Below are positions 235 to 55,661 of a DNA stretch of 55,721 nt, in pieces. Positions within the stretch are counted from its first letter, which is position 1, and every line of letters begins with the position of its first letter. Location: positions 1-55,721 of IMG/VR virus record IMGVR_UViG_3300038958_000005; one strand, 5' to 3'. Source of the DNA: a virus. Lineage: Duplodnaviria; Caudoviricetes. The notes below the pieces were generated by a model. It had not been told where the DNA came from and ran no database searches. It was given only the letters and a program-made list of their open reading frames with translations. The translations under genes and the position numbers were made by a program.

Positions 235-549
235 TTAACGACGGTTGAGCGCATCTAGCTTATCTTCCCAGATTCGTTCAACGAACGTCGGATACGGTGC
301 CGGGGGTCCGTTGCCCCTATCCTGCCAGTGTCTGACGATACCCGATTCGGTGATGCACGTACAACGTAGGCCGCCCGATATCTCGCAGGGTATCAGCGCC
401 CGGCGGCATGCGGTGCAATACCACCGGCCGCCGTAGCGGATACTGCGAGTGCGCCGGAATAGTGACAACGCGGCCTTGAGTTCACCGGCCATGTCAATCT
501 TTGGCATCCAGCGAACCTGCCACGGCCGATAGATGCCCGCGTCCCTCAA
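235..549 (-). CDS. Cys-rich hypothetical protein (start uncertain: TTG 549 or ATG 507)
   Basis: WYCTAC...PC...CTC motifs; TTG at 549 overlaps the stop of the upstream 546..734 ORF. Confidence 0.55.
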   Translation of the reverse strand: MRDAGIYRPWQVRWMPKIDMAGELKAALSLFRRTRSIRYGGRWYCTACRRALIPCEISGGLRCTCITESGIVRHWQDRGNGPPAPYPTFVERIWEDKLDALNRR

Positions 550-734
550 TTCTTGGGGCACTGATGCGCCCGGATTGCCCGGTCCACGCGTTCCCGGCGT
601 TCGGTGTGACGCTGATAATCCGAAACGTCTAGCACCGGTTCGTGATGCACGATTGCCTGGCATGCTTTGCACCTCCACCTATGGGCTATCAGTCTCTTGC
701 GCCGCCGGATAGGTTCGTAAACGATAGTCGGCAT
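546..734 (-). CDS. small putative Zn-binding protein
   Basis: WRCKAC...AHQC motif; fits the tightly packed minus-strand gene run. Confidence 0.55.
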   Translation of the reverse strand: MPTIVYEPIRRRKRLIAHRWRCKACQAIVHHEPVLDVSDYQRHTERRERVDRAIRAHQCPKN

Positions 735-1069
735 GTAGTCAGTCCGTCGATAATGTCCGTTATCGCGCCCCTCACATGATCGATTAGTTGCTTGCGTAGA
801 TCATCATCGGTACGCCTGCCCGAAGGCATCCACCCGCAAGAACACTTGACCCGTACGCGTTCGAACAGCGGATGCTTGCGTAGGGTCACAACGTGACCGT
901 AACCGAGAAAGTAGGTGATGCGCTTGCGTGACCACCGGCGAGGAATGCGGGCCCTGTACCATCGCGGGAAGTACGCCCGGATATGACTTAACGCTTCGTT
1001 GCGGTCCACGAATCGATGACCGCATAGGCACCACTCGGTATTTAACGGCCAATGTTCATCCTTCGCCAT
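689..1069 (-). CDS. protein with two CxC...H Zn-finger-like modules
   Basis: WCLCGHRF...LSHIRA and KCSCGW...LIDHVRG are internally repeated. Confidence 0.65.
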   Translation of the reverse strand: MAKDEHWPLNTEWCLCGHRFVDRNEALSHIRAYFPRWYRARIPRRWSRKRITYFLGYGHVVTLRKHPLFERVRVKCSCGWMPSGRRTDDDLRKQLIDHVRGAITDIIDGLTTCRLSFTNLSGGARD

Positions 1070-1118
1070 TCGCCCGGTCCACGCCTATCGCATGTACGCC
1101 TACGCCTAGACCTACAAC

Positions 1119-1268
1119 CTATCGTTTACGGTCACGTGATACGGCCGCCGTATGACCGCATGTTAGGAACACGGCGACGTATCCTGTTCGCAACATTCGA
1201 ACCTTCGGTTTTCCAGCCTCTAGCACGGGTTCGCGCTCATACCCGCAACGCCTACAGTACCACGTCAC
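1119..1268 (-). CDS. small Zn-ribbon-like protein (GTG start)
   Basis: WYCRRCG...LTCGH; GGGGG SD at 1279-1283. Confidence 0.5.
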   Translation of the reverse strand: MTWYCRRCGYEREPVLEAGKPKVRMLRTGYVAVFLTCGHTAAVSRDRKR

Positions 1269-1285
1269 GGTTTCATCACCCCCTA

Positions 1286-1495
1286 CTACTTGATGCGTAT
1301 CCCGCAGTGCACAAGGCGTACGTCTACGTTGCGGGATAGGGTCATTACCACCGCCGGGCGTACTGTCGCGTCGGTGTACCAATACATCCAAAGGATGCGC
1401 CCGTTGGAAGTCCGTATCCCCCACTCGCAGATAGGTTCCCACTTGCCACTGCGCCAATTGATGTTGTTCGTCCAAAGCGGGAGTATGGCCTGCAT
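1286..1495 (-). CDS. small-protein array member (ends IRIK)
   Basis: central ILWMYWY; C-terminal IRIK; GGGG SD. Confidence 0.75.
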   Translation of the reverse strand: MQAILPLWTNNINWRSGKWEPICEWGIRTSNGRILWMYWYTDATVRPAVVMTLSRNVDVRLVHCGIRIK

Positions 1496-1505
1496 TGTAC
1501 GGCCC

Positions 1506-1700
1506 CTATTTCAACCGCATCATACAAAGTTTCCTGTTGGTGAATAGGATACGCCCGGCATCATTGACGATTCGGCCCGGCGGCCCGGTATCGGAACGCC
1601 AATATGCCAGTGACGAATAGTAGCCGTCATGGTTGAGCACCACGAACACGTCGCCCCGTACGTTAACCCAGATAGGATTGTTCCAGCTTGAACCGCTCAT
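1506..1700 (-). CDS. small-protein array member (ends MRLK)
   Basis: central SLAYWR; ATG 1700 with GAGGGG SD. Confidence 0.75.
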   Translation of the reverse strand: MSGSSWNNPIWVNVRGDVFVVLNHDGYYSSLAYWRSDTGPPGRIVNDAGRILFTNRKLCMMRLK

Positions 1701-1711
1701 GAACCGGCCCC

Positions 1712-1888
1712 TCACTTGAGGCGTAGGGCTAATCGGCCGTAGTACAGCATGATATCCTGATGCGTAATGCTTACTTCCGGGTCTACGGAATAATGACGTA
1801 GCCAGTACACCACGTTCAACAAATCATCGCCCATATCCCGGATATAGTACACGTCGCGCCTATCGTTCGAAGCGATGAATGTTCTCAT
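1712..1888 (-). CDS. small-protein array member (ends LRLK)
   Basis: DRRDVYY...VVYWL; ATGA overlap with upstream stop. Confidence 0.75.
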   Translation of the reverse strand: MRTFIASNDRRDVYYIRDMGDDLLNVVYWLRHYSVDPEVSITHQDIMLYYGRLALRLK

Positions 1889-2064
1889 TTCAGCCTCAAT
1901 AGGCAACGGCCGCAGTCATACATGATAATCGGCCGCCGTACCGTCGGATATCGGAATTTCGGCGATACCGGTATTTCATACAGCATGTACAGCACGCCTA
2001 GCATTTCCGTATCTGTTACCAGATAGTAGATATCCCGGTTATCGGTGAATCCAACGCTAATCAT
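1885..2064 (-). CDS. small-protein array member (ends LRLK)
   Basis: DNRDIYY...VLYML; ATGA overlap; similar to 1712..1888. Confidence 0.75.
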   Translation of the reverse strand: MISVGFTDNRDIYYLVTDTEMLGVLYMLYEIPVSPKFRYPTVRRPIIMYDCGRCLLRLK

Positions 2065-2261
2065 TTCAGCACTATCGAACGGACGAATTTCCCGGAAGGT
2101 ATCGTAATCAGCACCGCGATAGCGCACCTTGTTGTACCGTGCACCGACACGCGGGCCGTTTCCTGTTGTTCATGATTCGCGGCCAAGATATAAAAGTCAT
2201 AACATACGCCGGACTTACACTCTAGGTAGTAGATGCGCGGCCCGATGCACTTAACACGCAT
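2061..2261 (-). CDS. divergent small-protein array member (ends IVLK)
   Basis: RIYY...DFYIL; C-terminal variant lacks the R/K at -3; start uncertain. Confidence 0.6.
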   Translation of the reverse strand: MRVKCIGPRIYYLECKSGVCYDFYILAANHEQQETARVSVHGTTRCAIAVLITIPSGKFVRSIVLK

Positions 2262-2295
2262 TTCCGGGGTCAGCGCCGCCGTGTTCGTGTCGCCC

Positions 2296-2502
2296 TTACT
2301 TGACGCGAACATAGATAGCCCCCACGAACGCGTTGTTTCGCATCGGGGAATAGACCAATACCGCGGACTCCGATAAACCTTGCCTTACACGCGGCCGGTT
2401 CACCGCGAACGAATGGCCGTAGATTGTGGTAGTCTTCCACCCGTACGTCATCAGATAGTCGCCGCGGTCACTGTAGATATCAGGTCTGACTTCGCTTTGC
2501 AT
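2296..2502 (-). CDS. small-protein array member (ends VRVK)
   Basis: DRGDY...TIYG; GAGGG SD before ATG 2502. Confidence 0.7.
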   Translation of the reverse strand: MQSEVRPDIYSDRGDYLMTYGWKTTTIYGHSFAVNRPRVRQGLSESAVLVYSPMRNNAFVGAIYVRVK

Positions 2503-2509
2503 GGTACCC

Positions 2510-2728
2510 TCACTTGATGCGCAATGATGCCTGCCTATCATCATTCCCGGTACGGTGCAGGTTGATCCATACATAACCGATGTTATCGTTTAACTCTACT
2601 GACGGTCCAAAATCTGGAGCCGCATACACCGCCGGGTGGATCAACAAGTACACCACCAATGTTGACCCGTCAACGTCAAAATAGCATACGTCGCCCTTCG
2701 GTTCAATGCTGATAGATTGCTGACTCAT
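2510..2728 (-). CDS. small-protein array member (ends LRIK)
   Basis: VVYLL, GYVW, ASLRIK; GGGGG SD; close paralogue of 2748..2975. Confidence 0.75.
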   Translation of the reverse strand: MSQQSISIEPKGDVCYFDVDGSTLVVYLLIHPAVYAAPDFGPSVELNDNIGYVWINLHRTGNDDRQASLRIK

Positions 2729-2747
2729 CGCGTAAGCCCCCGCCCGG

Positions 2748-2975
2748 TCACTTGATGCGCAATGATGCCCGGCTAATGCCGTTCGCGTCACGGAATAGGT
2801 GCATCCATACGTAGCCTCTAGGCCATGTAATCCACGGCGGATTGTGTGGTCTGACGCTTGACGTGTAGACGGTGAACAACGCGCCGCCGTCCACTTGCAG
2901 ATAATAATCATTCGGGTATGCCACTATCGCCTGATGCATTGCCGCCGCCCGATTAGTCTGATTCATCGCGTTCAT
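2748..2975 (-). CDS. small-protein array member (ends LRIK)
   Basis: TVYTS, GYVW, ASLRIK; last 22 nt identical to those of 2510..2728. Confidence 0.75.
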   Translation of the reverse strand: MNAMNQTNRAAAMHQAIVAYPNDYYLQVDGGALFTVYTSSVRPHNPPWITWPRGYVWMHLFRDANGISRASLRIK

Positions 2976-3138
2976 CCCGCGCCATTGTTGCATTGACCGC
3001 GCACGCTGTCAAGTACACCGCCGTCCACACGACCGAAACAGCGGCGATGATACGCATATCGCCCGTCATCACCGCGCCGCCCAATACCACCATGACTACC
3101 ATCCAGATAACCCACCGAATGAATGTTTCGTGTCGCAT
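2953..3138 (-). CDS. small membrane protein (2 predicted TM helices)
   Basis: two hydrophobic stretches; GAGG SD. Confidence 0.6.
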   Translation of the reverse strand: MRHETFIRWVIWMVVMVVLGGAVMTGDMRIIAAVSVVWTAVYLTACAVNATMARDERDESD

Positions 3139-3148
3139 CGGTTGTTCC

Positions 3149-3400
3149 TCACTTGACCCGCAGGCCCGTTGTATCCAGTAGCAACATCACGGCGTTCGAT
3201 TTCTTCGGCGGATAGGTTCGATATTGCCGACGTTCACCGGTTAGCCAGTACAGCCAGAAGGCGTCATTGCGGTTTAGACACATAACGTATGTGACCCAAC
3301 AGGTTCCATTACACCGTCCAATATGTGATTCGATTCGCGGGTACCCGTCGTGGCTTAACGGTCCTAGGATATCGAACAGTGGCACATTCGCTGACTGCAT
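3149..3400 (-). CDS. small-protein array member (ends LRVK)
   Basis: YPRI...FWLYWL; GGGGG SD; paralogue of 3875..4096. Confidence 0.75.
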   Translation of the reverse strand: MQSANVPLFDILGPLSHDGYPRIESHIGRCNGTCWVTYVMCLNRNDAFWLYWLTGERRQYRTYPPKKSNAVMLLLDTTGLRVK

Positions 3401-3855
3401 CAATTCACCCCCGCCGAATTGCTAGGCTTAGAGGCGTTACCTAGTACTGAGCGAAGGGCTTTATCCGCGTTACGTTCGCATTCGATAACATCGCCTTCGC
3501 TAAGTTCTACAGGTTTGACCGCTACAACATGGAATGTGAACACGCCCCACGGGGCGATGAGGCTAGTATTGCATTCAGGGCAAATAATATCGCCCCATTC
3601 CTCATCATAAGCCCCGTCGGTGTTACACGCGCTACAACGCACTGCGCTTTCCACCTTATCAATGAACCGGGCGAATTCTATGTCGCGCATGGCCTTTGCC
3701 CATCGGCTAGCCAAACGGTAGTTATCCGCCTTGACCAATAGGTCAAGGTCCGGTCGCGCAGATTCTGCCCGTCCGACTTGCACCCTAAACAGCATATTCC
3801 TTGAACCCCCTTTGTCTAGACTGTTTTCAGTCCGCGCATCATTGATTAACTGCAT
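3400..3855 (-). CDS. Zn-ribbon protein
   Basis: CSAC...CPEC; GGGGGTG SD. Confidence 0.7.
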   Translation of the reverse strand: MQLINDARTENSLDKGGSRNMLFRVQVGRAESARPDLDLLVKADNYRLASRWAKAMRDIEFARFIDKVESAVRCSACNTDGAYDEEWGDIICPECNTSLIAPWGVFTFHVVAVKPVELSEGDVIECERNADKALRSVLGNASKPSNSAGVN

Positions 3856-3874
3856 CGATTCACCCCCACCGGTT

Positions 3875-4096
3875 TTACTTTATGCGCATGGCCCGATACG
3901 GGGCCGATAGCATCACCGAATCGCTTTCCCTCAAAGGGCTTATCACGTGTTCCCGGCGGCCGTGTAGCCAGTACAGCCAGAGGGCGTAATCGCGGTTCAT
4001 CCACATGATGTATGACGCCCGGCAGATTCGGCTATGCCGGTCAATATCTACCGCGATTCGCGGATAGTCCGTCGCCTTATTCCTCGCCCGGTTCAT
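3875..4096 (-). CDS. small-protein array member (ends MRIK)
   Basis: YPRI...LWLYWL; GGGGGTG SD. Confidence 0.75.
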   Translation of the reverse strand: MNRARNKATDYPRIAVDIDRHSRICRASYIMWMNRDYALWLYWLHGRREHVISPLRESDSVMLSAPYRAMRIK

Positions 4097-4218
4097 TGTT
4101 CACCCCCGGATACCCTAACCGATGCTAGCACCCCCAAAGCGTTCGCGCAACTGCCGGACAGTGAATTATCGGTTACAGGGTGTTCGATGCCCGGCGTCGC
4201 GCCGATTCGGCTGCCCGG

Positions 4219-4398
4219 CTACTTGAGTCTTAGGCATCCCCTGTTACTCCGAAACTCTACGCCGTACGGTTCCTGATGAATGTTAGGCCGGGGTTCGGAA
4301 CCGTTGCTTATCCAGTAGACCCACATATCGAACAACGTTCCCTTGAGTATCCATATCGCCCGTTCATCGCTAGGCCGAAATGTAAACCGGTTGACCAT
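4219..4398 (-). CDS. small-protein array member (59 aa, ends LRLK; not in ORF track)
   Basis: manual translation MVNRFTFRPSDERAIWILKGTLFDMWVYWISNGSEPRPNIHQEPYGVEFRSNRGCLRLK; GGGGG SD. Confidence 0.75.
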   Translation of the reverse strand: MVNRFTFRPSDERAIWILKGTLFDMWVYWISNGSEPRPNIHQEPYGVEFRSNRGCLRLK

Positions 4399-4413
4399 CG
4401 CATTAACCCCCGG

Positions 4414-4476
4414 TCACTTTATCTTGATGCACCCCCTGTTACTCCGAAACTGTATGCCGCGCACTTCCCGATGCAC
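4414..4476 (-). CDS. 20-aa minigene or truncated array member (ends IKIK)
   Basis: GTG-HREVRGIQFRSNRGCIKIK; 4429-4451 matches 4234-4256 at 22/23 nt. Confidence 0.45.
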   Translation of the reverse strand: MHREVRGIQFRSNRGCIKIK

Positions 4477-4486
4477 CCGGCCCCGG

Positions 4487-4690
4487 TCATTTCAGCTTGA
4501 GTTCTAACGCGTGACCGCGCGGCCGCTTGACCGCCGTAGCGTACACGCTACCGTCGGCGTTGACCTTGAGCTGGCTAGACCCGTTCGTTTGCCAGAAACG
4601 GCAATAGACCCAGTAAGACTGCCCCCTATCCGGCAAGTACGCCCGAATCCAGCCCTCAACCGTAATTCGTATACCCATTTCCGGGTTCAT
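4487..4690 (-). CDS. small-protein array member (ends LKLK)
   Basis: WIRAY...YWVYC...DGSVYA; paralogue of 4703..4912. Confidence 0.75.
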   Translation of the reverse strand: MNPEMGIRITVEGWIRAYLPDRGQSYWVYCRFWQTNGSSQLKVNADGSVYATAVKRPRGHALELKLK

Positions 4691-4702
4691 CGGTCACCCC
4701 GC

Positions 4703-4912
4703 TTACTTTAGCTTTAGGCGTAGTAGCCGCAGTACCCGTGATTGTTTGGTCAACGCCGCGGCATACACGCCATCCTTGCCGATTTCAATGCCGCCTTCCC
4801 CCGGTGCCCCGCTGAAACATGTGTACACCCACCAAAACATTCCGTTCACGTCCGGGGCATACGCCAACACCCACTCGTGGATGACGATATTCAGTCCGGC
4901 GTTTCCGTTCAT
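4703..4912 (-). CDS. small-protein array member (ends LKLK)
   Basis: WVLAY...WWVYT...DGVYA. Confidence 0.75.
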   Translation of the reverse strand: MNGNAGLNIVIHEWVLAYAPDVNGMFWWVYTCFSGAPGEGGIEIGKDGVYAAALTKQSRVLRLLRLKLK

Positions 4913-4926
4913 CGATGCGACTCCGG

Positions 4927-5154
4927 TCACTTTAGCCTGACGGCTATTTGACGGCCTGCCATACCTATGACGAAATCCACCGTACCGTTCGTGTATACCC
5001 TGAATTCCGTAGTGTTCCCGCGTACGGCCCGGTGGAAGTACAGCCAGTACCGGCCGTTGCCCGCCTTAGTCATCGCCCAGCCGTGCGAATAGCCGACGAT
5101 CTTCGATCCGAACGAATAGCTGATGGTGCCGCCAAAGATTCGTGGTTCGTTCAT
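4927..5154 (-). CDS. small-protein array member (ends VRLK)
   Basis: RYWLYF; ATGA overlap with upstream stop. Confidence 0.75.
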   Translation of the reverse strand: MNEPRIFGGTISYSFGSKIVGYSHGWAMTKAGNGRYWLYFHRAVRGNTTEFRVYTNGTVDFVIGMAGRQIAVRLK

Positions 5155-5411
5155 TTTATCCGCATCCAAACGTCCCTGCCCGTGTTCCCGGCGTATCGGG
5201 TGCGAATGCTGACCGTTGACCGGGGCCGGAGGCCTATCATGAGCACGTTCGGTGATTCAACCCATCGCCGGTACTGTACCCAGTTCGACCAATACACCCG
5301 GCTAATGTACACCCGTTCGGAGCCGTTCACCCGGTACAGGTTGAATTCGTCAACCGGTGGGACTGTAGACCATACCCCCGGATTACGCTTAACCTCTACG
5401 TCTCGGTACAT
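5151..5411 (-). CDS. small-protein array member (ends MRIK)
   Basis: RVYWS; ATG 5411 directly downstream of the ATPase stop. Confidence 0.7.
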   Translation of the reverse strand: MYRDVEVKRNPGVWSTVPPVDEFNLYRVNGSERVYISRVYWSNWVQYRRWVESPNVLMIGLRPRSTVSIRTRYAGNTGRDVWMRIK

Positions 5412-5424
5412 TACCCCAGCCCCT

Positions 5425-6675
5425 TTACTTTGTCCGCCGTGACCCGGACCGCTTGCCAGCGCGCCCGGTCGTGTACTTGCCCGGCACGGGAACAGCCACC
5501 GCATCCTTGACGGGTTCGTCGGTGACCGGGTCCACGTCATAGACCTTGACCGTCGGCGTTTCGCCTTTGCTAAGGGCGATGGACGCATCGATCAGTTCGC
5601 CCTTGAGTTCGCCGTTCTCCTCATAGTAGATGCCGTGGCGCTCAAGAATGCCCGCGAACCGTTCGGCAACGCTATCGCATGACCTAAAGAATGACTCAAG
5701 GCCTGCGGTCAGCGGCGCTTCGTACCACGCCCGGCGGAACGTCGGGTAGTACGCCTGAAACCGCGTAATGGCCAACAGTCCGCGAAGCCGGGCCGTATCG
5801 TCGGCCGTAGTCAGCGCCTGTAGTAGGCCTTCGAAGTAGCCCACCATTTCAAGGTCATTGTGGCCCACCTGTTCGTACACCTGAAACACAAAGTTCGGGT
5901 CAGCCAGCGCCCAACTGGGATCGATGCGTTGCATCATGGTATCCACGGCGGCCGCCGGCAAGAATGACCGCAGAATCAGCCGTTGGGCGTCAGCGCTCAA
6001 TCCGTAGAACGCCGGGTTGATGAGTTCGCGCGCGGCCGCGATTTCGGCGGCCGTCACCCATTCCGCATCAGGCGGCGGTTCGGGTGACCATTCGCGACTC
6101 GCCCACGTTTCCGTTGGTTCGACCGGGGCCGTGGTAGCCAGTAGGCGCGCCATGGCGTGGTCACCGGCCACTTCGATCAGGTCTTCGCGTTCGGGCACAA
6201 CGTGAAATGTGAGCACGCGGGTTCGGAGGCCGCCGTCCATATCGAACGGATTCGTCGCCCCGATGATGTACCACTCACTGCCCCGCGCGGGCATTTCCAC
6301 GTTGAGTAGCTTATTACCCCGAATCAGCCCGTACAACGTGGACACTACCGAACCCCCGGCGTTCGCCGCTTGCCCCACTTCGTCAAGGAACAGCACCGTG
6401 CGCTTGCCCTTCGCGGCGTTGTCAAGCACCGTACGTGCCCATTCGGGCAACGCCCAACGAATCTGCCCGTCTACTTCGATAGGGAAGCCGCAGATTTCGT
6501 GTGGATTCTGCGTTGCCAGATACAGGTAGAGGATATCGGCGTCCAATTCCCGCGCAATTTCCGTTGCTAGGTACGTCTTCCCTGCGCCCGTCGGCCCCCA
6601 CAACAGCGGGGCACGCGTTCGGGCGTGAGTCATTGCGTGCATCACGGCCTGTTTAATGGCGTCGCGTCGCGTCAT
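5425..6675 (-). CDS. MoxR-family AAA+ ATPase
   Basis: Walker A GPTGAGKT, Walker B LFLDE, sensor GATNP, arginine finger LRTR; paired with a vWA gene. Confidence 0.85.
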   Translation of the reverse strand: MTRRDAIKQAVMHAMTHARTRAPLLWGPTGAGKTYLATEIARELDADILYLYLATQNPHEICGFPIEVDGQIRWALPEWARTVLDNAAKGKRTVLFLDEVGQAANAGGSVVSTLYGLIRGNKLLNVEMPARGSEWYIIGATNPFDMDGGLRTRVLTFHVVPEREDLIEVAGDHAMARLLATTAPVEPTETWASREWSPEPPPDAEWVTAAEIAAARELINPAFYGLSADAQRLILRSFLPAAAVDTMMQRIDPSWALADPNFVFQVYEQVGHNDLEMVGYFEGLLQALTTADDTARLRGLLAITRFQAYYPTFRRAWYEAPLTAGLESFFRSCDSVAERFAGILERHGIYYEENGELKGELIDASIALSKGETPTVKVYDVDPVTDEPVKDAVAVPVPGKYTTGRAGKRSGSRRTK

Positions 6676-6676
6676 G

Positions 6677-7885
6677 TTAGTTACCCCCTGCGTCAACGAT
6701 TGTTACCGACTTCCACGGCGGCGTATTCCCGGCCCCGGTCCGAATCCAAAGCACCGGAACGCCCGGATCATCGGGCCAGTCAAGGTAGCCGTCCGTGATA
6801 AGTACCAGACCGTCCGGGCGGTATTGCATCGCCCGGTCAATCAGCGGCTTTATGTCAGTGCCGCCGCTACCCGTAAGTGTTCGGGGCACTGCGTGTGCCG
6901 CCGTAATCTCAACGTCAAGCGTGACTTCGGTATCGCCCGCGATAAGCCGAACCGGCGTCGCGCGCGATGCAATGGCCTTTACGGCCGCGATAGCCTGCGC
7001 TAGGTCTTCGGCCTGCATCGATCCTGACGTGTCAAGCACCATCACCAAATGCCGCCGCATCGGGGCCCACGTCAACCGCCGCGTTGGCAGAATCACGCCG
7101 TACCGACGCGGTACGCGCGCGGGCCGGTTGATAGCATCGGCCGTTTCAAGCGTGAACCGCCGGTACGCCGTCAGCCAGCGCCGGGTCAGTTTGACCCACG
7201 CAGGCGTCCGAGATTCGGGTATGTCAATCGTCGCGGCTCCGGCGGTCAGTCCGTGTCCGAATCCGGCGGCCGCCTGTTTGCCCGCCGCGTCGGCGTACTG
7301 CGACGCCGCGATGCTAGCCGCGATGCTTGCCATCGGGTCATCCGTCGGTTCGATGCCCCCACAGAGGCCATCGGGCAATAGCCCGCCGTCATTGCCCGGT
7401 TCACCGTTGCCCGATGCACCACTGCCGCCCGTTTGCTCATGCATGGCCCGGTGCACCGCGACATAGTGCGGCGTGTCAAGTTTCAAGGCCTCTAGATATT
7501 CCACGGGGTCAACCGGCCGGTGCACGGCCCGCTTGAGCGCCTCAAACCGTTCGCGCCCAATGGCGGCGTTCACGTGTACATCCGTTGCGATGAGCATGCA
7601 CTCGCGGCCATGATGCGCCGCTTCGTCGGCGTCTACCTGAAAGTGTCCGAGTAGCACGTGCCCTAGCTCATGCCAAAGCACCGCCCGGATCACTTCCGGG
7701 TCCTCAAATTCAGGGCTGATGTATACCGTCCAAAGGCGCTTTGTTTTATCCCATACCGTCGCGGCCTTCGCCGGAATGCCGAAGTCGGCGGGGTTACGCG
7801 CGACAAGCTCAATCTGCGCCGCTCCGGTCAGTAGGCGCTTTTGAATGTCATCAGCCGCGTTGAGAATATCGTTCACCGTCGCCAT
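6677..7885 (-). CDS. HExxH metallopeptidase-vWA fusion (DUF2201-like)
   Basis: LWHELGHVLLGH; Gly-rich linker; MIDAS DTSGS, GGTD, ITDGY. Confidence 0.85.
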   Translation of the reverse strand: MATVNDILNAADDIQKRLLTGAAQIELVARNPADFGIPAKAATVWDKTKRLWTVYISPEFEDPEVIRAVLWHELGHVLLGHFQVDADEAAHHGRECMLIATDVHVNAAIGRERFEALKRAVHRPVDPVEYLEALKLDTPHYVAVHRAMHEQTGGSGASGNGEPGNDGGLLPDGLCGGIEPTDDPMASIAASIAASQYADAAGKQAAAGFGHGLTAGAATIDIPESRTPAWVKLTRRWLTAYRRFTLETADAINRPARVPRRYGVILPTRRLTWAPMRRHLVMVLDTSGSMQAEDLAQAIAAVKAIASRATPVRLIAGDTEVTLDVEITAAHAVPRTLTGSGGTDIKPLIDRAMQYRPDGLVLITDGYLDWPDDPGVPVLWIRTGAGNTPPWKSVTIVDAGGN

Positions 7886-7894
7886 GGTGACCCT

Positions 7895-7923
7895 ATCGTC
7901 GCATAGCCGCCGGGGGAAGTCAA
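7895..7923 (-). promoter_or_regulatory. putative sigma70-type promoter of the peptidase/ATPase/array operon
   Basis: TTGACT-17 nt-(TG)nGACGAT just upstream of ATG 7885; the -10 is a weak match. Confidence 0.4.
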
Positions 7924-7962
7924 GGGCCCCGACGGGCTCATTCACCGAATCTTTACAATTTT

Positions 7963-8175
7963 CTACGCGTGGCGGTCACCGGTCCGACGCGCCGGGCGCG
8001 CCGCTACTACGGCATCCAGCCGCTCAATCAGCCGCAGTAGCGCGGCTAGCAACGGTTCGGGCCCGTTGCCGTCAAACTGCGCCTCTAGCGCGCCCTCGGA
8101 CGTTGCGAATTCCACCCAACGGTGCAACCCGGCCGCGATATCGGCCAATTCGCGATTCACGTTCGCGTTCGCCAT
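7963..8175 (-). CDS. hypothetical protein (first gene of early arm)
   Basis: AGGGGGTG SD at ~8182-8189; helical-looking sequence. Confidence 0.6.
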   Translation of the reverse strand: MANANVNRELADIAAGLHRWVEFATSEGALEAQFDGNGPEPLLAALLRLIERLDAVVAARPARRTGDRHA

Positions 8176-8406
8176 TGCATTCACCCCCTATGTTGTCCGT
8201 GCCTACTCTAGCATGCCGGGTGCAGTAGGGCAAGTATTTGGCCCCCGGCGCGGTCCATGATTCGGCGGCCCCGTGCATACGGCGGCGGTCTTCTCGGACG
8301 CCGGGCCCGGTATTCGCCCGTTGCCCGCGCGCGCCGGGCGTGCATTTCTGACCGCGTCGGCGTCCCCCTCTAGGCCCCGTTTCGGCCCGGTACCGGCGCA
8401 CGATTC

Positions 8407-8475
8407 GGCCCCGCTTTGGCCCCGCTTTTAGGCCCGCTTTAGCCCCCGCTTTGCCGCTACGTTGGCCCCCGCTTT
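8407..8475. repeat. 5 closely spaced CCCGCTTT repeats
   Basis: read directly from 8407-8475. Confidence 0.85.
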
Positions 8476-9611
8476 AGCCCCGATACGGCCGTCCGATGCG
8501 TCGCCGATGCGTCTCCGTTGCGCCGCCGTTGCGCCGCCGTTGTTGCCCCGATGCATTGCCCCGATTTCGTCATCGATTCGTCACCATTTCGTCACTTTGG
8601 GTTCATGCGCGGGTTATCTTCGAACCCAAAGCCCCCCATCGCGCCCTATCGATGCCAAATTCGCCGATGCGTGCGCCGCCCCGCCGATGCGCCGCCAATG
8701 CATGCGCGCGCTACTGATTCGCCGCCGGGCCCGTCGATTCGCCGTCACGCTGATATGCGGCCGGTTCGCTATGCCGTATCGTGCCGCCGATGTAGTGCGT
8801 TAACGGTTCGCCCGGCGTCAGCGGTTCGCATCGGTTTCGTCGCGGGTACGTTGGCGGTTCATCATCAACGGCGCGGCCCCCGGTTCGTCGCCGATGCGAC
8901 GCCGCACTGGATGCATCCGCCGATTCGCCGGTTGCCCGATACGCGCCCGATGCGCCGCTACGCCGGTTCGGCCGCGATGCACCGCCCGGTTCACGGTGCA
9001 TGCCCACGCGCGCGTTGTCGGTTCGGCCCCCGGCTTTATCCCTATTCGGCCCGGCGCGTTCCCTCTATGCGCGGCCCGGCGGGCGCCGGGTAGTGCGTCA
9101 GCGGTTCGTCGGCGGTTCGGCGGTTCGGCGTGGGCGTGGGCGTGGGCGCCGCCCGCGCGCCCGTCACGTCATCGGTTCACCGTTGGCCGTTCGCCGATTA
9201 CGCGCCCGTGCATTACCGCCGCATTGCCGCCGCCCTTCGCCTTATGCCCCGACGCCCTCCCAAAGTGCCCTATCCCCTCCGAATCCCCGAATCGCTCGTG
9301 TTCGAAGTAACAACGCTACATACCCCCAGAAGTGCCCAAGCGAGCGGGGCCGGGGGCCAGCGCCCACGAGCGCCGGAGTGACGGTGACGGTCATATACCC
9401 CCGCGAAATTTTTTACAAAACCATACCTCCCTCATATCGCTCACATACGAACAAATGCAGGCATCAGCGCAGGTATAGGAAATGGCGGTTGCGGTGCGTG
9501 CGGAGCCTGAAATTACCGCCGACTTTCGATCAATCAATTCGACCAGATAGGTTTCTCAGCACTGCGGCGCAGCCGCCCCGGAGCACGTATAGGGCAGAGA
9601 GATGAACAGGT

Positions 9612-9640
9612 TTCGGCGGATGGTGTATATCGTATATAAT
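9612..9640 (+). promoter_or_regulatory. possible promoter for the only plus-strand gene
   Basis: perfect TATAAT at 9635-9640; weak -35. Confidence 0.35.
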
Positions 9641-9686
9641 GTCATTAGGCCGCTAGACGGTCGATCGACGGCCAGGCGGCGGCCGC

Positions 9687-9877
9687 AGTATCGTGCAAAG
9701 TATCGTACAAAGCATCGTGCAAAGTATAGGAGTAAGTATAGTGCGTAGGTATGGATATCAGTATACTCTGGTCCAGACCGAGGTCTAGCGATAAGTCTAG
9801 CATTAGGTATAGACCACAGTCTAGACCTTGGTATAGACCTTGGTATAGACCTTAGTCTAGACCTTGGTATAGACCTA
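9687..9877. repeat. two abutting 12-bp-period tandem arrays (AGTATCGTGCAA-like, then RGTMTAGACCTT-like)
   Basis: ~7 degenerate units at 9687-9769 and 9 units at 9770-9877, e.g. GGTATAGACCTT/AGTCTAGACCTT. Confidence 0.9.
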
Positions 9878-9920
9878 TCAATCCCTCAGTCCTACCCTTA
9901 GCACTAGAGGAGGCAGAACC

Positions 9921-10472
9921 ATGATGCAGATTTGCAAGAACGACCGATGCTCGAACATCGTCATGCCTAACGAGAAGGGTAGACCCAAGCTCTTCTGCTC
10001 CGCTCGATGCAGGAGGAGATATTACTCAAGACGCGAATACCAGACGCTTTTCGGTAACGGTCTGATGATGATCGATGAGAAGAACAGGCCGAAGATCAAC
10101 AGGACGCTCTCCAGAACAGCTGAGGAGGCTGCCAGGCGCTACAAGAAGCATCTGGACGACTGCCCACTGTATAGAGGACCATGCCCCGGCAGATATGACC
10201 CTCACGGCCAGCAGAAGCGTTGTCTGATCGCTGCTGTGCTCGCAGACGACTGGAGATACCTGCTTCAGCTAGAAGGAGGTGTCATGAAGCCCAGGAGGTC
10301 TTCTACGAGCGTTTCTGGCTACTGGCTGTCCGACCTCACTCCAGAAGAGATAAAGGAGGAAGAGAAACGATTTGGCAGGAGGTATTCGAGTTACTACAAC
10401 TTCACCGATACCCAGCTACAGAGACTTAGAGAGGTCGGCTTCTTCAACCCGGTAGAGGAGCTTCCGGAGTAG
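9921..10472 (+). CDS. Zn-finger DNA-binding protein (putative regulator)
   Basis: CKNDRC...GRPKLFCSARCRRR; GAGGAGG SD; only credible plus-strand gene. Confidence 0.75.
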   Translation: MMQICKNDRCSNIVMPNEKGRPKLFCSARCRRRYYSRREYQTLFGNGLMMIDEKNRPKINRTLSRTAEEAARRYKKHLDDCPLYRGPCPGRYDPHGQQKRCLIAAVLADDWRYLLQLEGGVMKPRRSSTSVSGYWLSDLTPEEIKEEEKRFGRRYSSYYNFTDTQLQRLREVGFFNPVEELPE

Positions 10473-10563
10473 GCCGGACTCTCTTATATATTATTATCTA
10501 TAGGGGGATGACAGAGGACTGTCTATGGACGAATTGATTGATTAAAAGTCGAATCTGGGTTGG

Positions 10564-10881
10564 TCAAATAAAGGGGTGTTGAGACGAATAATTGATCAGT
10601 AGGCCCTTGATCAGGGGTAGCCAGCGCGGTGAACTCGCGATCAGGGATACGAGGGCCAGTGTAGCGGCCAGAATCGCGCGAGCAAGCGGCTGCTTCAGCA
10701 TCCTGAACATGACGCTCGTGAGTAGCTCCGACCTGTCCGCCTTGTTCCCTAAGGCGGTCCTCAACTCCAACAGGTTGGCCTCCATCAGGGACATACGGTG
10801 GTTGACATGATCCTTGAGGTCAACGACATCATGCTTGAGTTCCAGGAGTTTCTCGTAAATCTCATGGTTCGTGATTCGCAT
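10564..10881 (-). CDS. coiled-coil + C-terminal TM protein (holin/accessory-like)
   Basis: heptad N-terminus, hydrophobic C-terminus; TGATG overlap. Confidence 0.6.
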   Translation of the reverse strand: MRITNHEIYEKLLELKHDVVDLKDHVNHRMSLMEANLLELRTALGNKADRSELLTSVMFRMLKQPLARAILAATLALVSLIASSPRWLPLIKGLLINYSSQHPFI

Positions 10882-11105
10882 CAGGAACCCCATTCAGGCC
10901 ATTTGCCTTCGAGCGCTTCTGCGGCCATGAATCCGCAGGCGATGGCAGCGAACAGCACAGGAATAGAACGAAAGTCGTTGCGCATCAGGAAGTACCTGAA
11001 ATGCGAGAACTCGACGATCGAAGCGAAACCGAGAACGGAAGTCCAGAAGATTCGAGCGAGGGTACCGGTCATCTGATCTATCTCCTTATCCGTATTCCAA
11101 TCCAT
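10881..11105 (-). CDS. small 2-TM membrane protein
   Basis: two hydrophobic segments, immediately after the tail spike gene. Confidence 0.6.
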   Translation of the reverse strand: MDWNTDKEIDQMTGTLARIFWTSVLGFASIVEFSHFRYFLMRNDFRSIPVLFAAIACGFMAAEALEGKWPEWGS

Positions 11106-11106: not shown

Positions 11107-13662
11107 CTATATCACGGTCCATTCGGTGTAGGTAGCGTTCCAGACGAATTCCACTACCTCTTTCGGTCCGATCACGACGTTCGCTCCTCCTTTCCCTCTC
11201 ACGTTGCTTCCTGGTAGTACTGACTCGTCCTGCAGCGTCAGCGTGTTCACGGCGCTGTCGTTGAGGATATAGAGGCGTTGTCCATCCGCTTCTCCGTCAC
11301 TAATCGATGGGGTGCTGGTCAGGGTGATGTTGGCGTTGGGAGTAACCTTGACCAATTCAGCAGTGGATACCACCGTATCGCCGGCAGCTGAGATAGTCTG
11401 AGTGACAGGCTGGAGGATCGCCTTCGCCGTATTGGTATATCCGCTAGGCTTCCAGATGAACTTGTCCGTATTCGCGATCTTGAGCGAAGCGGTGTCGTTC
11501 TGACGATTGTACGACAGGTAGTCGTTGATGTCGAACGTAATGTTGGAGGCTGTAACGGTCTCTACGGATAGGTAAGCGGAGAAGTCGTTGGTACTGGATG
11601 AGCCGCCGCTCCAGGGATTCTCCAGTCCGTCGCTGTACGTATCCGGATTGTTGATCCAGCTGCTTCCGGCGGCTCCTGCATCATAGGCCCAACTTACGGT
11701 TACTCCTGCGCCCACATTTGGTAATACGGCGATCCAGTATGTTCCTGGCGAAAGGATAATAGGATTAGGCAGATTGAGCGTCAACCAGCTGGCAGCTGTG
11801 GGCAGTGTTCCTGAGGTGCTGGCGAGCAGATTGTTAGGAGTACCTGCATTGTTGTCATAGATGCCGAAGTACACTCCTCTACCGGCAACATTAGCCCAGG
11901 TGTAGGCGCTAATTGCAGTAACCTTCGCCGTCGATGTGAGCACTACCTTGGCCGCCGACGAGTTATTTGCCGGGAAGGTATACGTGCTGCCGCCAACAGC
12001 CGTCTTCCCCACCGTGGTCACCACCGATCCCGTATCCAGTTTGAATGCCGTGTCCTTTACGTACAAAGATGAAGGCTTAGCGATGAAGTCGAAGTATCCG
12101 ATATCAAAGTTGCCGACGGTCCAGTTACCGCTGAGAGGAGTAGTACCGTCTCGTTTGATGAAGATACTTTCGTCTGAAGTTATCTGACTCGATCCATCCA
12201 CTTTGGTCGTGATCCGAACCGAGTGGTTAGGATCAAAAACTCCATTTATCGTGCTTCCAATACCACTGTTGATAAACTTTATGCCTATAGGAGAGTTGAT
12301 AAATTGATTGTTTGCAACAATAGCGCGAATATGAGCACTGGTAGTAGACTGTCCAGCGGCCTCCACCAATACAGACTGTGCCGATGAATTTACAATCTGA
12401 TTACTGGTGACAACATTCAACGTAAAGGTCCCGGCTCTTGCTCGCAAATGAACTCCTGTACTGAAATTCCTGATGATGTTACCAGTCGCTACTAGACCTG
12501 CTATATCGGCTGCAGTATCCGGATTTCCAGTCTTGTGCCAATCAGTATAGATGCCGGATCCGACATTAGCTCCAACAATGTAGTTGTTGGCAACGATGAA
12601 TTCCTGTTGCGAAAACCCGCTGTTTCCTACATATACTCCTCCGGCATTAGCCGAGCTAGAAGTCTGAATTATTAGGTTGTTGCGTATGTAGAATCTGCTT
12701 GCGGAAAGTGCCAGAATCGCTGGTCCATCTGATGCAACATTGATTATGTTGTTGTCTATCAGTGCAGTGTCAACGGAACCAACTGGTGCACGTATTGGTA
12801 TCGAGAAATAGTTCCTGTTGATCACAATTCTTAGATCATTGGATGACCCTCTTAGGATTAACTCACTACCCCCCTTAAAATAAGAATCAATGAACGTGCT
12901 ACCGCCCATGGAGCTAGTTTTTAGTGGGGATAGACCGTTATTAGACTGCTCTAGCAGACAGCTTTTTATGTATAGTTTAGTACCGCCTGCCGAAGTATCA
13001 ATGAGCTCTGAAGCGACTAAATTAGGCCTGTTCGTTAGATGAATATTAGACAGCACCAGACTCCATGAGGCGCCTATGTAACATTTTTTGCCTTCTGGGG
13101 CCTTCCACTTTACTCGTTGTATTACCCATTGACCTACAGCTGTATGAGACATGAAATGACCGTCTACACCCATACGAACGCCGACGATTACCAAGGTTGC
13201 ATTAGGTCCAGGGCTGACAGTAGGAATAACTTCTTCTTCGATATCATCTGCTAATAGTATGACCCAAGTTTTTTGGTTACTACTACTGACTACTGCCGCT
13301 CCTGCATCGATTGCTGCAGTTAGCGTAGTGAATCCTGTACCGAGTCTTCCCTTAGGATCGACGATTGCGTCGTATTCTAGCTTTCCTCCTCCACCATCGA
13401 TCTTAATGAACCCGGTGCCGGTACCCGACAGATTGGTCACATTGATCCCTGAACCGAACAGAAGCGCTCCCTGACCAATGAACGACGTATCCTCTCTCTT
13501 GGACGGATCGGAACCAATCAGCTTCCATACCGATGTACCCTGCTGCTCCATGAGCCCGCTATGACCCTGAACGCGCCACATGCGCGTATTAAGCTCGTTC
13601 AGTTGAGCTTTTAGTGCCTCGACTTCTTCCAGCAGCTGTTCGTACGGTTTGAATTCAGCCAT
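11107..13662 (-). CDS. tail spike/fibre with beta-helix domain
   Basis: repeated IxxNxI/VxNNxI rungs; AT-rich core; last gene of tail block. Confidence 0.8.
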   Translation of the reverse strand: MAEFKPYEQLLEEVEALKAQLNELNTRMWRVQGHSGLMEQQGTSVWKLIGSDPSKREDTSFIGQGALLFGSGINVTNLSGTGTGFIKIDGGGGKLEYDAIVDPKGRLGTGFTTLTAAIDAGAAVVSSSNQKTWVILLADDIEEEVIPTVSPGPNATLVIVGVRMGVDGHFMSHTAVGQWVIQRVKWKAPEGKKCYIGASWSLVLSNIHLTNRPNLVASELIDTSAGGTKLYIKSCLLEQSNNGLSPLKTSSMGGSTFIDSYFKGGSELILRGSSNDLRIVINRNYFSIPIRAPVGSVDTALIDNNIINVASDGPAILALSASRFYIRNNLIIQTSSSANAGGVYVGNSGFSQQEFIVANNYIVGANVGSGIYTDWHKTGNPDTAADIAGLVATGNIIRNFSTGVHLRARAGTFTLNVVTSNQIVNSSAQSVLVEAAGQSTTSAHIRAIVANNQFINSPIGIKFINSGIGSTINGVFDPNHSVRITTKVDGSSQITSDESIFIKRDGTTPLSGNWTVGNFDIGYFDFIAKPSSLYVKDTAFKLDTGSVVTTVGKTAVGGSTYTFPANNSSAAKVVLTSTAKVTAISAYTWANVAGRGVYFGIYDNNAGTPNNLLASTSGTLPTAASWLTLNLPNPIILSPGTYWIAVLPNVGAGVTVSWAYDAGAAGSSWINNPDTYSDGLENPWSGGSSSTNDFSAYLSVETVTASNITFDINDYLSYNRQNDTASLKIANTDKFIWKPSGYTNTAKAILQPVTQTISAAGDTVVSTAELVKVTPNANITLTSTPSISDGEADGQRLYILNDSAVNTLTLQDESVLPGSNVRGKGGANVVIGPKEVVEFVWNATYTEWTVI

Positions 13663-13664
13663 GA

Positions 13665-19988: not shown

Positions 19989-19997
19989 CGTTCGAAA

Positions 19998-20027: not shown

Positions 20028-20039
20028 CTATCTCCTTTC

Positions 20040-30065: not shown

Positions 30066-30071
30066 TGGCCA

Positions 30072-55436: not shown

Positions 55437-55661
55437 TTACTTCACGCGAACGTACGCTTCATTGCGCATCCTGCCCGTAATGAAACCCATGACGACTGCG
55501 CCACTCGTCAGGTCTTCACTTTCTGGATGAATAACGATCTTGGCCGCATCGGGAATTGATGGACTGTATGGAAGGTTCATCGACTTCGAACGCCAATATA
55601 CCATTTTCATCCATCCGCCCAACGATCGTTGTTTGACGAAGGATGAGGGCTTGACAACCAT
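55437..55661 (-). CDS. orphan small-protein array member (ends VRVK)
   Basis: MVYWRS and C-terminal YVRVK as in the 1.3-5.4 kb array. Confidence 0.65.
   Translation of the reverse strand: MVVKPSSFVKQRSLGGWMKMVYWRSKSMNLPYSPSIPDAAKIVIHPESEDLTSGAVVMGFITGRMRNEAYVRVK

Follow-up and report, generated by a model that had tools for sequence, protein, structure and literature searches.

A phage N4 gp24/gp25-type AAA+ ATPase and zincin–vWA gene pair beside an array of small genes with a common C-terminal motif

The DNA analysed here (the window) is the full 55,721-nucleotide stretch of the IMG/VR record IMGVR_UViG_3300038958_000005, assigned to the Caudoviricetes. Near its left end, the minus strand carries a gene for a protein with zincin and von Willebrand factor A (vWA) motifs, a gene for an AAA+ ATPase and, directly after them, an array of small genes whose products end in nearly the same four residues. 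The features of the locus are collected in Table 1.

Table 1. Features of the locus, by position in the window.
Feature	Position	Strand	Details
Array of 15 small genes, 58-86 aa	1286..5411	minus	14 end h-[R/K]-h-K, one ends SIVLK
Membrane-protein-like ORF, 61 aa	2953-3138		interrupts array
Zinc-ribbon gene	3400-3855		interrupts array
Remnant in array, 20 aa	4414-4476		duplicates 3' end of A5
AAA+ ATPase, MoxR-like, N4 gp24 type (predicted)	5425..6696	minus	Pfam AAA, phrog_1297, invariant motifs, structure model
Zincin (HExxHxxxxH) + vWA/DUF2201 protein, N4 gp25 type (predicted)	6677..7945	minus	PF09967, phrog_1314, Litunavirus alignment, invariant residues
Small ORF just upstream of vWA gene	7963..8184	minus	73 aa from GTG 8184; 70 aa from ATG 8175
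Non-coding region	8200..9900	no strand	62% G+C, full of 11-12 nt iterated repeats
16th tagged small gene	55437..55661	minus	74 aa, ends YVRVK; other end of contig, beside tRNA-Met

The vWA gene may start at GTG 7945 (422 aa) or at ATG 7885 (402 aa), the latter being the likelier start. Its product matched the vWA-like domain DUF2201 of Pfam (PF09967; 4.1e-20, 72.6 bits, above the gathering cut-off of 26.4) and PHROG 1314 (6.1e-27), and it contains the HExxH sequence HELGH, so that the gene announced as metallopeptidase–vWA in a preliminary description of this DNA is real. In the alignment of relatives, the zincin residues H72, E73, H76 and H81 and the vWA residues D285, S287, S289, T343 and D365 were invariant across nine sequences, the latter five being taken by us as the metal-site residues of a MIDAS (DxSxS ... 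T ... D). The protein is accordingly predicted to have a vWA domain with a complete MIDAS and an intact zincin site, formed by HExxH plus a further invariant His. A Litunavirus gp25-like protein aligned over the full length (25% identity, 373 aa, E 6e-14) with HELGH/HEIEH and DTSGS/DLSAS in register, and the nearest homologues, P0015-P0019, were 31-34% identical. PF13203, the putative metallopeptidase family DUF2201_N, appears in the precomputed annotation of four vWA relatives (P0015, P0021, P0022 and P0025); in the Pfam search it gave no match at E <= 0.01 to the N-terminal half of the window protein, for which phrog_87 'metallo-protease' was matched at 0.0012. Searching JGI metagenomes and GTDB genomes with the vWA alignment returned generic vWA matches only.

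For the ATPase gene, ATG 6675 (416 aa) is a likelier start than TTG 6696 (423 aa). The AAA+ core occupies residues 1-170; beyond it lie a C-terminal region of helices and a basic tail that is disordered. Matches were obtained to Pfam AAA (5.9e-10), AAA_5 (4e-6) and PHROG 1297 (1.4e-16), and the Pfam families found at E <= 0.01 were six: AAA, AAA_16, AAA_5, AAA_14, AAA_22 and ResIII. Since AAA_3 (PF07726), the strict MoxR family, was absent from these six, the protein was filed as MoxR-like and not as MoxR proper. The earlier assignment to the MoxR ATPases stands for an AAA+ protein of MoxR-like type, on the Pfam AAA and PHROG 1297 matches and the helix-2 insert described below, and falls for MoxR in the strict sense. 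G27, G32, K33, G63, N142 and R153 were invariant in 12 sequences, with D98 and E99 nearly so. Walker A, Walker B, sensor 1 and the arginine finger are all kept, and the ATPase is predicted to be catalytically competent.

A helix-2 insert together with a pre-sensor-1 hairpin defines the MoxR-like or helix-2-insert AAA+ class (MoxR, dynein, midasin, McrB), and the structure model of the ATPase, with a mean pLDDT of 65.5 and ten-residue blocks up to residue 160 scoring 71-93, places the protein in it. A beta-hairpin was modelled within helix 2 (residues 64-75; strands 64-68 and 71-75, flanked by helices 58-62 and 78-88), with further short strands ahead of sensor 1 (121-134), the pLDDT blocks at both inserts being 79-92. 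Excerpts of PMC13036017 describe hairpin inserts at these two places as the mark of the class. Among the best 10 PDB chains found by Foldseek, seven were NorQ and three MgsA. The VIA Z-scores of the core were 15.1 for cso-CbbQ, 14.8 for NorQ, 14.7-14.3 for dynein and 14.1 for CbbQ2, although unrelated AAA+ proteins were no more than 2 Z units behind the best row (Vps4 13.7, ClpC 13.6, Lon 13.5, and p97 likewise). By sequence only, the best PDB matches were the D2 domain of Cdc48 and NSF. The post-sensor-1 loop is about seven residues shorter than in 10 other ATPases, a shortening common to the window phage and one relative only, the genome G001 discussed below. A word-indexed search with the ATPase returned its own protein and one weak match only, and the NCBIfam library gave AAA and vWA matches that were all sub-threshold.

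With the ATG starts, 1 nt separates the vWA stop from the ATPase start, and the first tagged gene begins (ATG 5411) 13 nt after the ATPase stop. The vWA/ATPase junction is also covered (6625-6908) by a contig of run X2, from a second study, with 2 differing letters in 284. Gaps of 1-13 nt on one strand had been noted before as a sign of an operon; the gaps and the shared strand hold, but such spacing is not distinctive: a rough gene call on the minus strand (72 genes) gave a median gap of 12 nt, with 41 of 71 gaps at <=20 nt. The pair had also been described as the head of the operon behind a putative promoter, and neither point was confirmed. A consensus scan of positions 1-10600 found seven promoter-like sites against 6.9 +/- 2.2 in shuffles, none of them at about 7923, and the pair is preceded by the small ORF of Table 1. 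Leftward of the non-coding region, this ORF is the first gene; it has a Shine-Dalgarno-like site (GGGGGTG) before its ATG and matched no family in Pfam or PHROG. The repeat-rich 1.7-kb region itself is likely the control region in which leftward transcription of the unit would start. Rfam gave tRNA as its sole match, and no RNA records containing this DNA are listed.

On their PHROG families (1297 and 1314), the two genes are assigned to this phage's copy of the phage N4 gp24/gp25-type module, a pair already known as a core module of N4-like (Schitoviridae) phages and found in many others. Besides both family matches, the full-length vWA alignment keeps HExxH and DxSxS, the ATPase core aligns with a gp24-like protein, and at gp24/gp25-type loci the genes are likewise neighbours on one strand near replication genes. 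The window differs in its order, vWA then ATPase, in an identity of only 24-25%, in the longer C-terminal region and shortened post-sensor-1 loop of its ATPase, common to G001 only, and in the tagged mini-genes beside the pair, which the five N4-type or other GenBank loci do not have. In its other genes the phage is not N4-like, and a virion RNA polymerase was not identified. An ATPase gene was present in the flank at 70 of 80 IMG/VR loci with a relative of the vWA protein, on the same strand in 70/70 and within 1.5 kb in 65/70, with the order vWA then ATPase in a minority (11/70). In IMG/VR, no close relatives came up in single-query searches using the vWA protein, the ATPase or the family A DNA polymerase (PolA), and a terminase search yielded five contigs only, all of them short, at 33% identity.

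In Table 3 of PMC4193335, the 14 genes given as the core of N4-like phages include gp24 and gp25, and excerpts of the same paper describe the N4 homologues as middle transcripts. Neither these two tables, PMC2784036 (Table 1) and PMC4193335 (Table 3), nor excerpts of PMC7824862 name a function or client for the gp24/gp25-type pair. In the full-text literature search, no paper combined DUF2201 with MoxR, and the DUF2201 papers found say nothing on function. Vis-à-vis the vWA–MoxR ternary conflict systems (PMC7159879), no neighbouring ORF had a Pfam family of the third component (VMAP, iSTAND, FtsH or beta-propeller types). The same three domains make up a pair in jumbo phages of group 2.2 (Iyer et al. 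2021, PMC7824862, in excerpt), described there as chaperone and co-chaperone with a metallopeptidase fused at the N-terminus; their pair was proposed for virion assembly, whereas the pair of this 56-kb phage lies in a putative early/middle, replication-side block. The bacterial MoxR AAA+/vWA systems NorQ/NorD and CbbQ/CbbO supply the best structural matches of the ATPase core and have a partner with a vWA domain and MIDAS. They differ in that NorD and CbbO have no peptidase domain and act in metal insertion or Rubisco activation, and the likeness to NorQ and CbbQ is to be read with the close scores of Vps4, Lon and p97 and the missing AAA_3 match.

The array itself is far above chance. Fifteen of 1086 stop-to-stop ORFs of >=30 aa in the window end in the strict pattern [LIVMF][RK][LIVM]K, all 15 on the minus strand and 14 of them contiguous in 1286-5591, and this bore out the earlier report of a small-gene array with a shared C-terminal tag directly after the pair; in 30 shuffles, even the looser pattern [LIVMF][RK][LIVM][KLIVM] averaged 2.1 matches with a maximum of 6. 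Across the 16 small, basic and aromatic-rich proteins, nothing but the tail is conserved. Without the last five residues, only 6 of 120 array-protein pairs were alike at z > 4, the adjacent copies A6-A7 (z 22.8), A3-A4 (z 19.1) and A12-A13 (z 7.4) being clearly paralogous. Lys occupies position -1 in 17/17 copies, while Arg at position -3 is encoded by CGG (three times), AGG (twice), AGA (once) and CGC (seven times). Since these codons come from both the CGN and AGR families, a DNA-level origin of the motif was ruled out. Conserved far better than the protein bodies, the tail is selected at the protein level.

No homologues of the array family were detectable among 1.84 billion representative proteins, the ESM Atlas search gave no usable match, and a generic scan of 161 sources for over-represented C-terminal residue classes gave no informative signal. 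The model of an array protein had a pLDDT of 51.9 and placed the tail, at this low confidence, in a strand (residues 76-84 of 86). The tail may bear some resemblance to the LRLRGG of ubiquitin/ISG15, encapsulin cargo-loading peptides, T4 capsid-targeting sequences, C-terminal ClpX signals and T9SS C-terminal domains. Like other small-paralog arrays of phage early regions, this one is tandem, translationally coupled, fast-diverging and without a database family; it differs in that the shared feature is a 4-residue C-terminal motif, which recurs with another last residue on non-tandem mini-genes of G001.

Of the relatives, only G001 is fairly close (about 30% protein identity), and it carries both the pair and tagged mini-genes. 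Six credible small genes there end in L/V-R-h-L/I, one of them between the ATPase and vWA genes, and they are scattered through the replication block in non-tandem fashion. Loose tags were found in 13 of 734 ORFs of G001 against a background of 84 in 35989 (binomial P 3e-8). The array profile had 0 matches in G001, and profile–profile comparison (hhalign) of the array with the G001 tagged proteins gave a probability of 2.5%. In G001 the pair lies just upstream of the uracil-DNA glycosylase (UDG) and PolA genes, and UDG is directly upstream of PolA in both phages. In the window and in G001 the pair is set apart from the head/tail genes (20040-36745 and 11107-15788) and adjoins the replication block.

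Taken together, the locus is best explained as a gp24/gp25 module co-expressed with lineage-specific mini-proteins, which share its unit through tight packing, a reading to which we give about an even chance. Solved MoxR/vWA pairs suggest a mechanism by analogy: the vWA partner would be gripped and pulled by the ATPase ring, and a client protein would be bound through a carboxylate at the MIDAS site and may then be cut by the zincin domain. The pair would lie near the start of a leftward early/middle unit beginning in the repeat-rich control region, its timing being taken from synteny only. If the contig ends are joined, the unit would continue into the replication block with its genes for UDG and PolA, as in G001. 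Small genes and pair would share a transcription unit because the genome is packed tightly on one strand. The 16 small proteins would be a lineage-specific expansion unified by the C-terminal h-R-h-K and may be co-expressed host-directed mini-proteins, 'host-directed binder' being a guess by exclusion since they gave no usable model. Against this explanation count the tagged mini-genes of G001, including the one between its ATPase and vWA genes, and the match of loop and tail ends described below.

The tail could also have no signalling role, being the last amphipathic beta-strand of fast-evolving paralogs, with the Lys codon and TGA kept since AAATGA/AAGTGA give overlapping starts that couple translation. 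The paralogy of adjacent copies, the remnant derived from A5 and the strand placed at the tail by the low-confidence model agree with this, as do the TGA after AAA or AAG at 10 of 17 gene ends and the ATGA or GTGA overlaps that start A2, A3, A12 and A13. However, the other 7 of 17 ends are TAA or TAG, and 114 of the 120 body pairs are dissimilar, yet the tail is kept in all. The G001 proteins, non-tandem, ending in Leu/Ile and without profile similarity to the array, still keep L/V-R-h-h. With this balance we consider a tail without signal unlikely.

The reading closest to the preliminary description makes the h-R-h-K tail a docking tag for the phage's own ATPase/vWA-peptidase, with the small proteins as clients or interchangeable adaptors. 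That description had relied on AAA+ rings often engaging short terminal tags, but current knowledge of this class differs: in the mechanistic template, NorQ/NorD, a finger of the vWA partner sits in the pore, although the hydrophobic C-terminus of the partner does dock on the post-sensor-1 loop (PMC13036017, in excerpt). Removal of the last two residues of NorD abolished co-purification with NorQ, according to excerpts of the same paper, and speaks for docking by a C-terminus. A possible route is that the tail fills the ring's post-sensor-1 site, in the way that the NorD C-terminus does in NorQ. The array lies on the strand of the pair and begins 13 nt after it, the tail is all that its proteins conserve, and G001 has both elements, with one tagged gene inside the pair, as a functional link would predict. 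In addition, the post-sensor-1 loop and the final residue of the tail covary between the two genomes, FDMDGG with Lys tails in the window phage and AVFAPP with Leu/Ile tails in G001, so that loop chemistry appears to match the tail ends; because only two related genomes are compared, their agreement is not independent.

Against docking, the pair without tagged genes is the rule. The 79 other IMG/VR loci with a relative of the vWA protein had 35 loose-tag matches in 18528 ORFs, without enrichment, and no strict tags were found at five GenBank phage loci carrying the pair. The expected co-occurrence of pair and tagged genes was seen in G001 and failed at these loci. Moreover, the 16th tagged gene is at the far contig end, the tagged genes of G001 are scattered, tight spacing is normal for this genome, and the C-terminus of the window vWA protein (...VDAGGN) is unlike the tag. 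Evidence for a functional link between pair and tail is mixed, and we hold the docking tag to be quite unlikely. Equally improbable is its full form, in which the gp24/gp25 module would have become, in a small phage lineage, a machine addressed by tags. Fast-evolving mini-proteins, in their dozens and as interchangeable clients or adaptors, would dock by their tail (h-R-h-K here, L/V-R-h-L/I in G001) on the cognate ATPase at its shortened post-sensor-1 loop, acidic here and hydrophobic in G001.

Alternatively, the tail may address host machinery, for instance as a degron for a host AAA+ protease or as a binding site for a chaperone, so that early proteins would be short-lived. The motif is C-terminal and mixes basic and hydrophobic residues, presumably resembling basic-hydrophobic C-terminal ClpX signals and DnaK-binding peptides, and the genes lie in the putative early/middle block. 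No tool gave a motif match, though, and the change of the last residue from Lys to Leu/Ile between phages is explained no less well by co-evolution with a partner encoded by the phage, which leaves a host address very unlikely. Just as poorly placed is the view that the pair is a chaperone/protease of virion assembly with no relation to the array: such a role was proposed for the MoxR and peptidase-vWA pair of group 2.2 jumbo phages, and a MoxR–vWA system was shown in tail assembly of Acidianus two-tailed virus (both in excerpts of PMC7824862), but the pair lies beside the replication block and apart from the head/tail genes in both phages, and its N4 homologues are middle transcripts (PMC4193335, in excerpt).

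If the tag-addressed reading were true, this core module of N4-like phages would for the first time have named substrates or partners in these mini-proteins, and the window phage and G001 would give a ready set of candidate clients together with a natural specificity swap (Lys against Leu/Ile). If the tail is not an address label, the array is still an unusually clean case of a protein family united by a C-terminal tetrapeptide alone.

The preliminary description placed a metallopeptidase–vWA gene beside an ATPase gene, and this was confirmed by the HELGH motif and by matches to DUF2201 and to PHROG 1314 and 1297. Comparison of the vWA protein with 50697 phage records by tblastn gave matches in 110 records, none covering 80% of the query, and most of them are N4-like phages (85 Pseudomonas, 11 Achromobacter and 4 Erwinia). 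The gp25-type gene and an ATPase gene lie on one strand in 5/5 records inspected. In Erwinia phage Pastis the two genes are direct neighbors; a single small gene separates them in Pseudomonas phage PA14 and Acinetobacter phage Presley, where they are annotated as N4 gp24-like and gp25-like, and three to five genes do so in Thermus phiFa and Planktothrix Pag-Yong1. In a 373-residue alignment (E 6e-14), the vWA protein shares 25% identity with the gp25-like protein of PA14, and the HExxH and DxSxS motifs coincide; the ATPase core is 24% identical to the gp24-like protein over 135 residues (E 4e-6). Since H72, E73, H76 and H81 as well as D285, S287, S289, T343 and D365, the last five of which we take to be the MIDAS metal-site residues, are invariant in nine relatives, both the peptidase site and the metal site look functional.

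Scanning IMG/VR with the vWA alignment of the nine relatives gave 471 stretches that encode relatives. In the best 80 of these loci, an ATPase profile found a partner in 70, on the same strand in 70/70. The partner lies upstream of the vWA gene in 59 loci and downstream of it in the other 11, at a distance within 1.5 kb in 65/70; nine of the ten loci without a partner have an upstream flank of less than 3 kb. The N4 literature describes gp24 and gp25 as core genes of N4-like phages, of unknown function and transcribed as middle genes in N4 (PMC2784036; PMC10783043; PMC4193335). For group 2.2 jumbo phages, one paper describes a pair of the same kind, with the same three-domain composition as the window's pair, and proposes a role in virion assembly (PMC7824862). 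The pair is thus an ordinary member of a known phage module without an explained function. PHROG 1314 and several RefSeq records (NC_023581, NC_019514, NC_023556 and others) label the gp25-type zincin-vWA family 'HNH endonuclease', which looks like a propagated mislabel because the sequence offers it no support.

The ATPase had been called MoxR. It has no Pfam AAA_3 match, its best PDB sequence matches are Cdc48 and NSF, and by sequence it is a generic AAA+ protein. A structure model built from 12 sequences has a mean pLDDT of 65.5, with ten-residue blocks up to residue 160 scoring 71–93, and contains a β-hairpin within helix 2 and short strands ahead of sensor 1. These two features are characteristic of the class to which MoxR, dynein and McrB belong. 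NorQ accounts for 7 of the top 10 PDB chains in Foldseek, and VIA-align Z scores were 15.1 for cso-CbbQ, 14.8 for NorQ, 14.7–14.3 for dynein and 14.1 for CbbQ2, followed by Vps4, ClpC, McrB, Lon and p97 at 13.7–13.2. Matching viral models include 'Gp24-like' and 'COG0714 MoxR-like' proteins. The modelled fold suggests that the ATPase is MoxR-like, although not MoxR proper.

With the starts in public gene calls, ATG 7885 for the vWA protein (P0014, 402 aa) and ATG 6675 for the ATPase (P0001, 416 aa), the ATPase starts 1 nt from the vWA stop, and the first small gene's ATG is 13 nt beyond the ATPase stop, so the gaps of 1–13 nt noted earlier are correct. This spacing is nothing special for the window, where a crude gene call on the minus strand (72 genes) gave a median gap of 12 nt, with 41/71 gaps of at most 20 nt. 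The putative promoter before the pair was not borne out: positions 1–10600 hold 7 promoter-like sites versus 6.9 ± 2.2 in shuffled sequence, none near 7923. Nor was it confirmed that the pair heads the operon of the array (the small minus-strand genes downstream): another small ORF precedes the vWA gene. The minus strand showed no terminator-like site from 8184 to 1286, which is compatible with a single transcription unit.

Coordinates of features in the window and in the related phage record G001
Feature	Position	Strand	Remarks
Small ORF	7963-8184	minus	70-73 aa; good ribosome-binding site; precedes vWA gene
Zincin-vWA ORF	6677-7945	minus	Pfam DUF2201 (vWA-like domain) 4.1e-20; PHROG 1314 6.1e-27
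ATPase ORF	5425-6696	minus	Pfam AAA and AAA_5; PHROG 1297 1.4e-16
Tagged ORFs, 14	within 1286-5591	minus	
Tagged ORF, contig end	55437-55721	minus	
Tagged remnant	4414-4476	minus	20 codons; ends IKIK-stop
Gene next to remnant	4219-4398		
Zinc-ribbon-like protein gene	3400-3855	minus	151 aa; CxxC...CxxC; weak Pfam A2L_zn_ribbon match, 0.0066
Membrane-protein-like ORF	2953-3138	minus	61 aa, hydrophobic
Cys-rich ORFs after array	1119-1475, 689-1069, 235-678		family matches 0/3
GGTCTAKAC array	9807-9875		6 copies
Other 11-12 nt repeat families	8404-8554, 9675-9746		
Cys-rich gene	9921-10472	plus	183 aa; divergent
tRNA-Met	55358-55432	minus	anticodon CAT
ACGATGC repeat	50701-50755		7.9 copies, 97% matches
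G001 tagged ORFs	5385-5555, 8458-8619, 10795-10974, 12284-12478, 14531-14731, 19896-20072		53-66 aa

The unusual part of the locus is the array with its four-residue tail. Among the 1086 stop-to-stop ORFs of at least 30 aa in the window, 15 end in [LIVMF][RK][LIVM]K, all on the minus strand, and one further gene within the row ends in SIVLK. With the likeliest starts, the 16 tagged proteins have 58–86 aa, a pI of at least 8.7 in 13 cases and 8–16% aromatic residues. The tail is selected at the protein level; Arg at −3 is encoded by CGG, AGG, AGA and CGC, each hydrophobic position uses 8–9 different codons, and Lys at −1 is kept in 17/17 copies. It is by far the best-kept feature of the family, and once the last five residues are removed, only 6/120 pairs show likeness at z > 4. 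The family has expanded by tandem duplication, and the strongest three body matches are between adjacent genes (A6–A7, A3–A4 and A12–A13). The DNA of the remnant is a repeat of the 3′ end of the next gene, a sign of recent partial duplication within the array.

A profile of the 16 proteins found no credible relatives elsewhere among 1.84 billion representative proteins: 10 of its 11 matches at E ≤ 0.001 are the window's own proteins, and the eleventh, a 681-aa repeat protein, is regarded as spurious. Structure modeling of an array protein was unusable (pLDDT 51.9), and the ESM Atlas held no usable match. The row is broken by the zinc-ribbon-like and the membrane-protein-like ORFs, and three Cys-rich ORFs follow it.

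The link between tail and pair was evaluated with the looser C-terminal pattern [LIVMF][RK][LIVM][KLIVM]. It ends 35/18528 ORFs in 79 other IMG/VR loci with a vWA-protein relative and 49/17461 in 80 family A DNA polymerase (PolA) loci, compared with 15/1086 in the window (binomial P 8e-8) and 13/734 in G001 (P 3e-8), a 46283-base IMG/VR record with 31%, 28% and 32% identity to the window in vWA protein, ATPase and PolA. Six of the G001 tagged ORFs are credible genes with ribosome-binding sites, ending in GLRIL, ALRVL, SLRLL, RLRLL, RLRVI and SVRLL, i.e., L/V-R-[ILV]-[LI]. They are not in tandem, one lying between ATPase and vWA genes and the others in gaps around UDG (uracil-DNA glycosylase), PolA and primase, and their proteins show no detectable profile likeness to the array. 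Across phages, therefore, the pair normally stands without tags, but both known members of this sparsely sampled lineage combine it with tagged mini-genes; being related, the two genomes are not independent evidence.

In the NorQ/NorD system, the pore of the ATPase is occupied by a vWA-domain finger, and NorD docks its hydrophobic C-terminus on the post-sensor-1 loop; NorD that lacks its last two residues no longer co-purifies with NorQ (PMC13036017). In the window and G001 ATPases, the post-sensor-1 loop is about 7 residues shorter than in ten other aligned sequences; it reads FDMDGG in the window, whose tails end in Lys, and AVFAPP in G001, whose tails end in Leu or Ile. Since loop chemistry tracks the last tail residue in the two phages, this covariation between two sequences would fit docking of the tail. 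It is the one suggestive comparative hint for the earlier proposal that the tail marks the small proteins as substrates or adaptors of the ATPase/peptidase, a model that we consider unlikely, its two founding arguments being removed by the wide occurrence of the pair without tags and by the tight packing genome-wide.

The 55721-base window is the whole virus record, which is listed as linear and estimated to be 88% complete, and it belongs to a tailed phage. Almost all genes are on the minus strand, and they include DNA polymerase, helicase, exonuclease, large terminase and major head protein, as well as UDG, an ERCC4 nuclease and a lysozyme-like protein. No close relative was found in GenBank phages or IMG/VR. 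In Logan contigs, sequencing run X1, possibly the source sample, covers the window in full, while run X2, from a different study, gave three contigs of 254–292 nt, each 1–2 letters off, one of which spans the vWA/ATPase junction.

In both phages the gene directly upstream of PolA is UDG, and the G001 pair is just upstream of this block. In the window, pair and array continue off one end of the contig; at the opposite end come the 16th tagged gene, a tRNA-Met and then the UDG–PolA block, so a map joined at the ends would be syntenic with G001. From this synteny, pair and array may form an early/middle, replication-side unit starting at the repeat-rich region. The tRNA-Met directly follows the 16th tagged gene, and a heptamer repeat sits in the gap that precedes the UDG gene.

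Beyond the small ORF that precedes the vWA gene are 1.7 kb without convincing ORFs and full of 11–12 nt repeats, with the leftward unit on one side and a divergent Cys-rich gene on the other. Inside this non-coding stretch (8200–9900), GGTCTAKAC recurs at exact 12-nt spacing (0.58 copies expected by chance) and is absent from the rest of the window; GGTCTAGACC is a palindrome. The repeats look like an operator or iteron array. One short X1 contig joins 9073 to 9151, omitting 77 nt, so the repeat region is either variable in length or hard to assemble.
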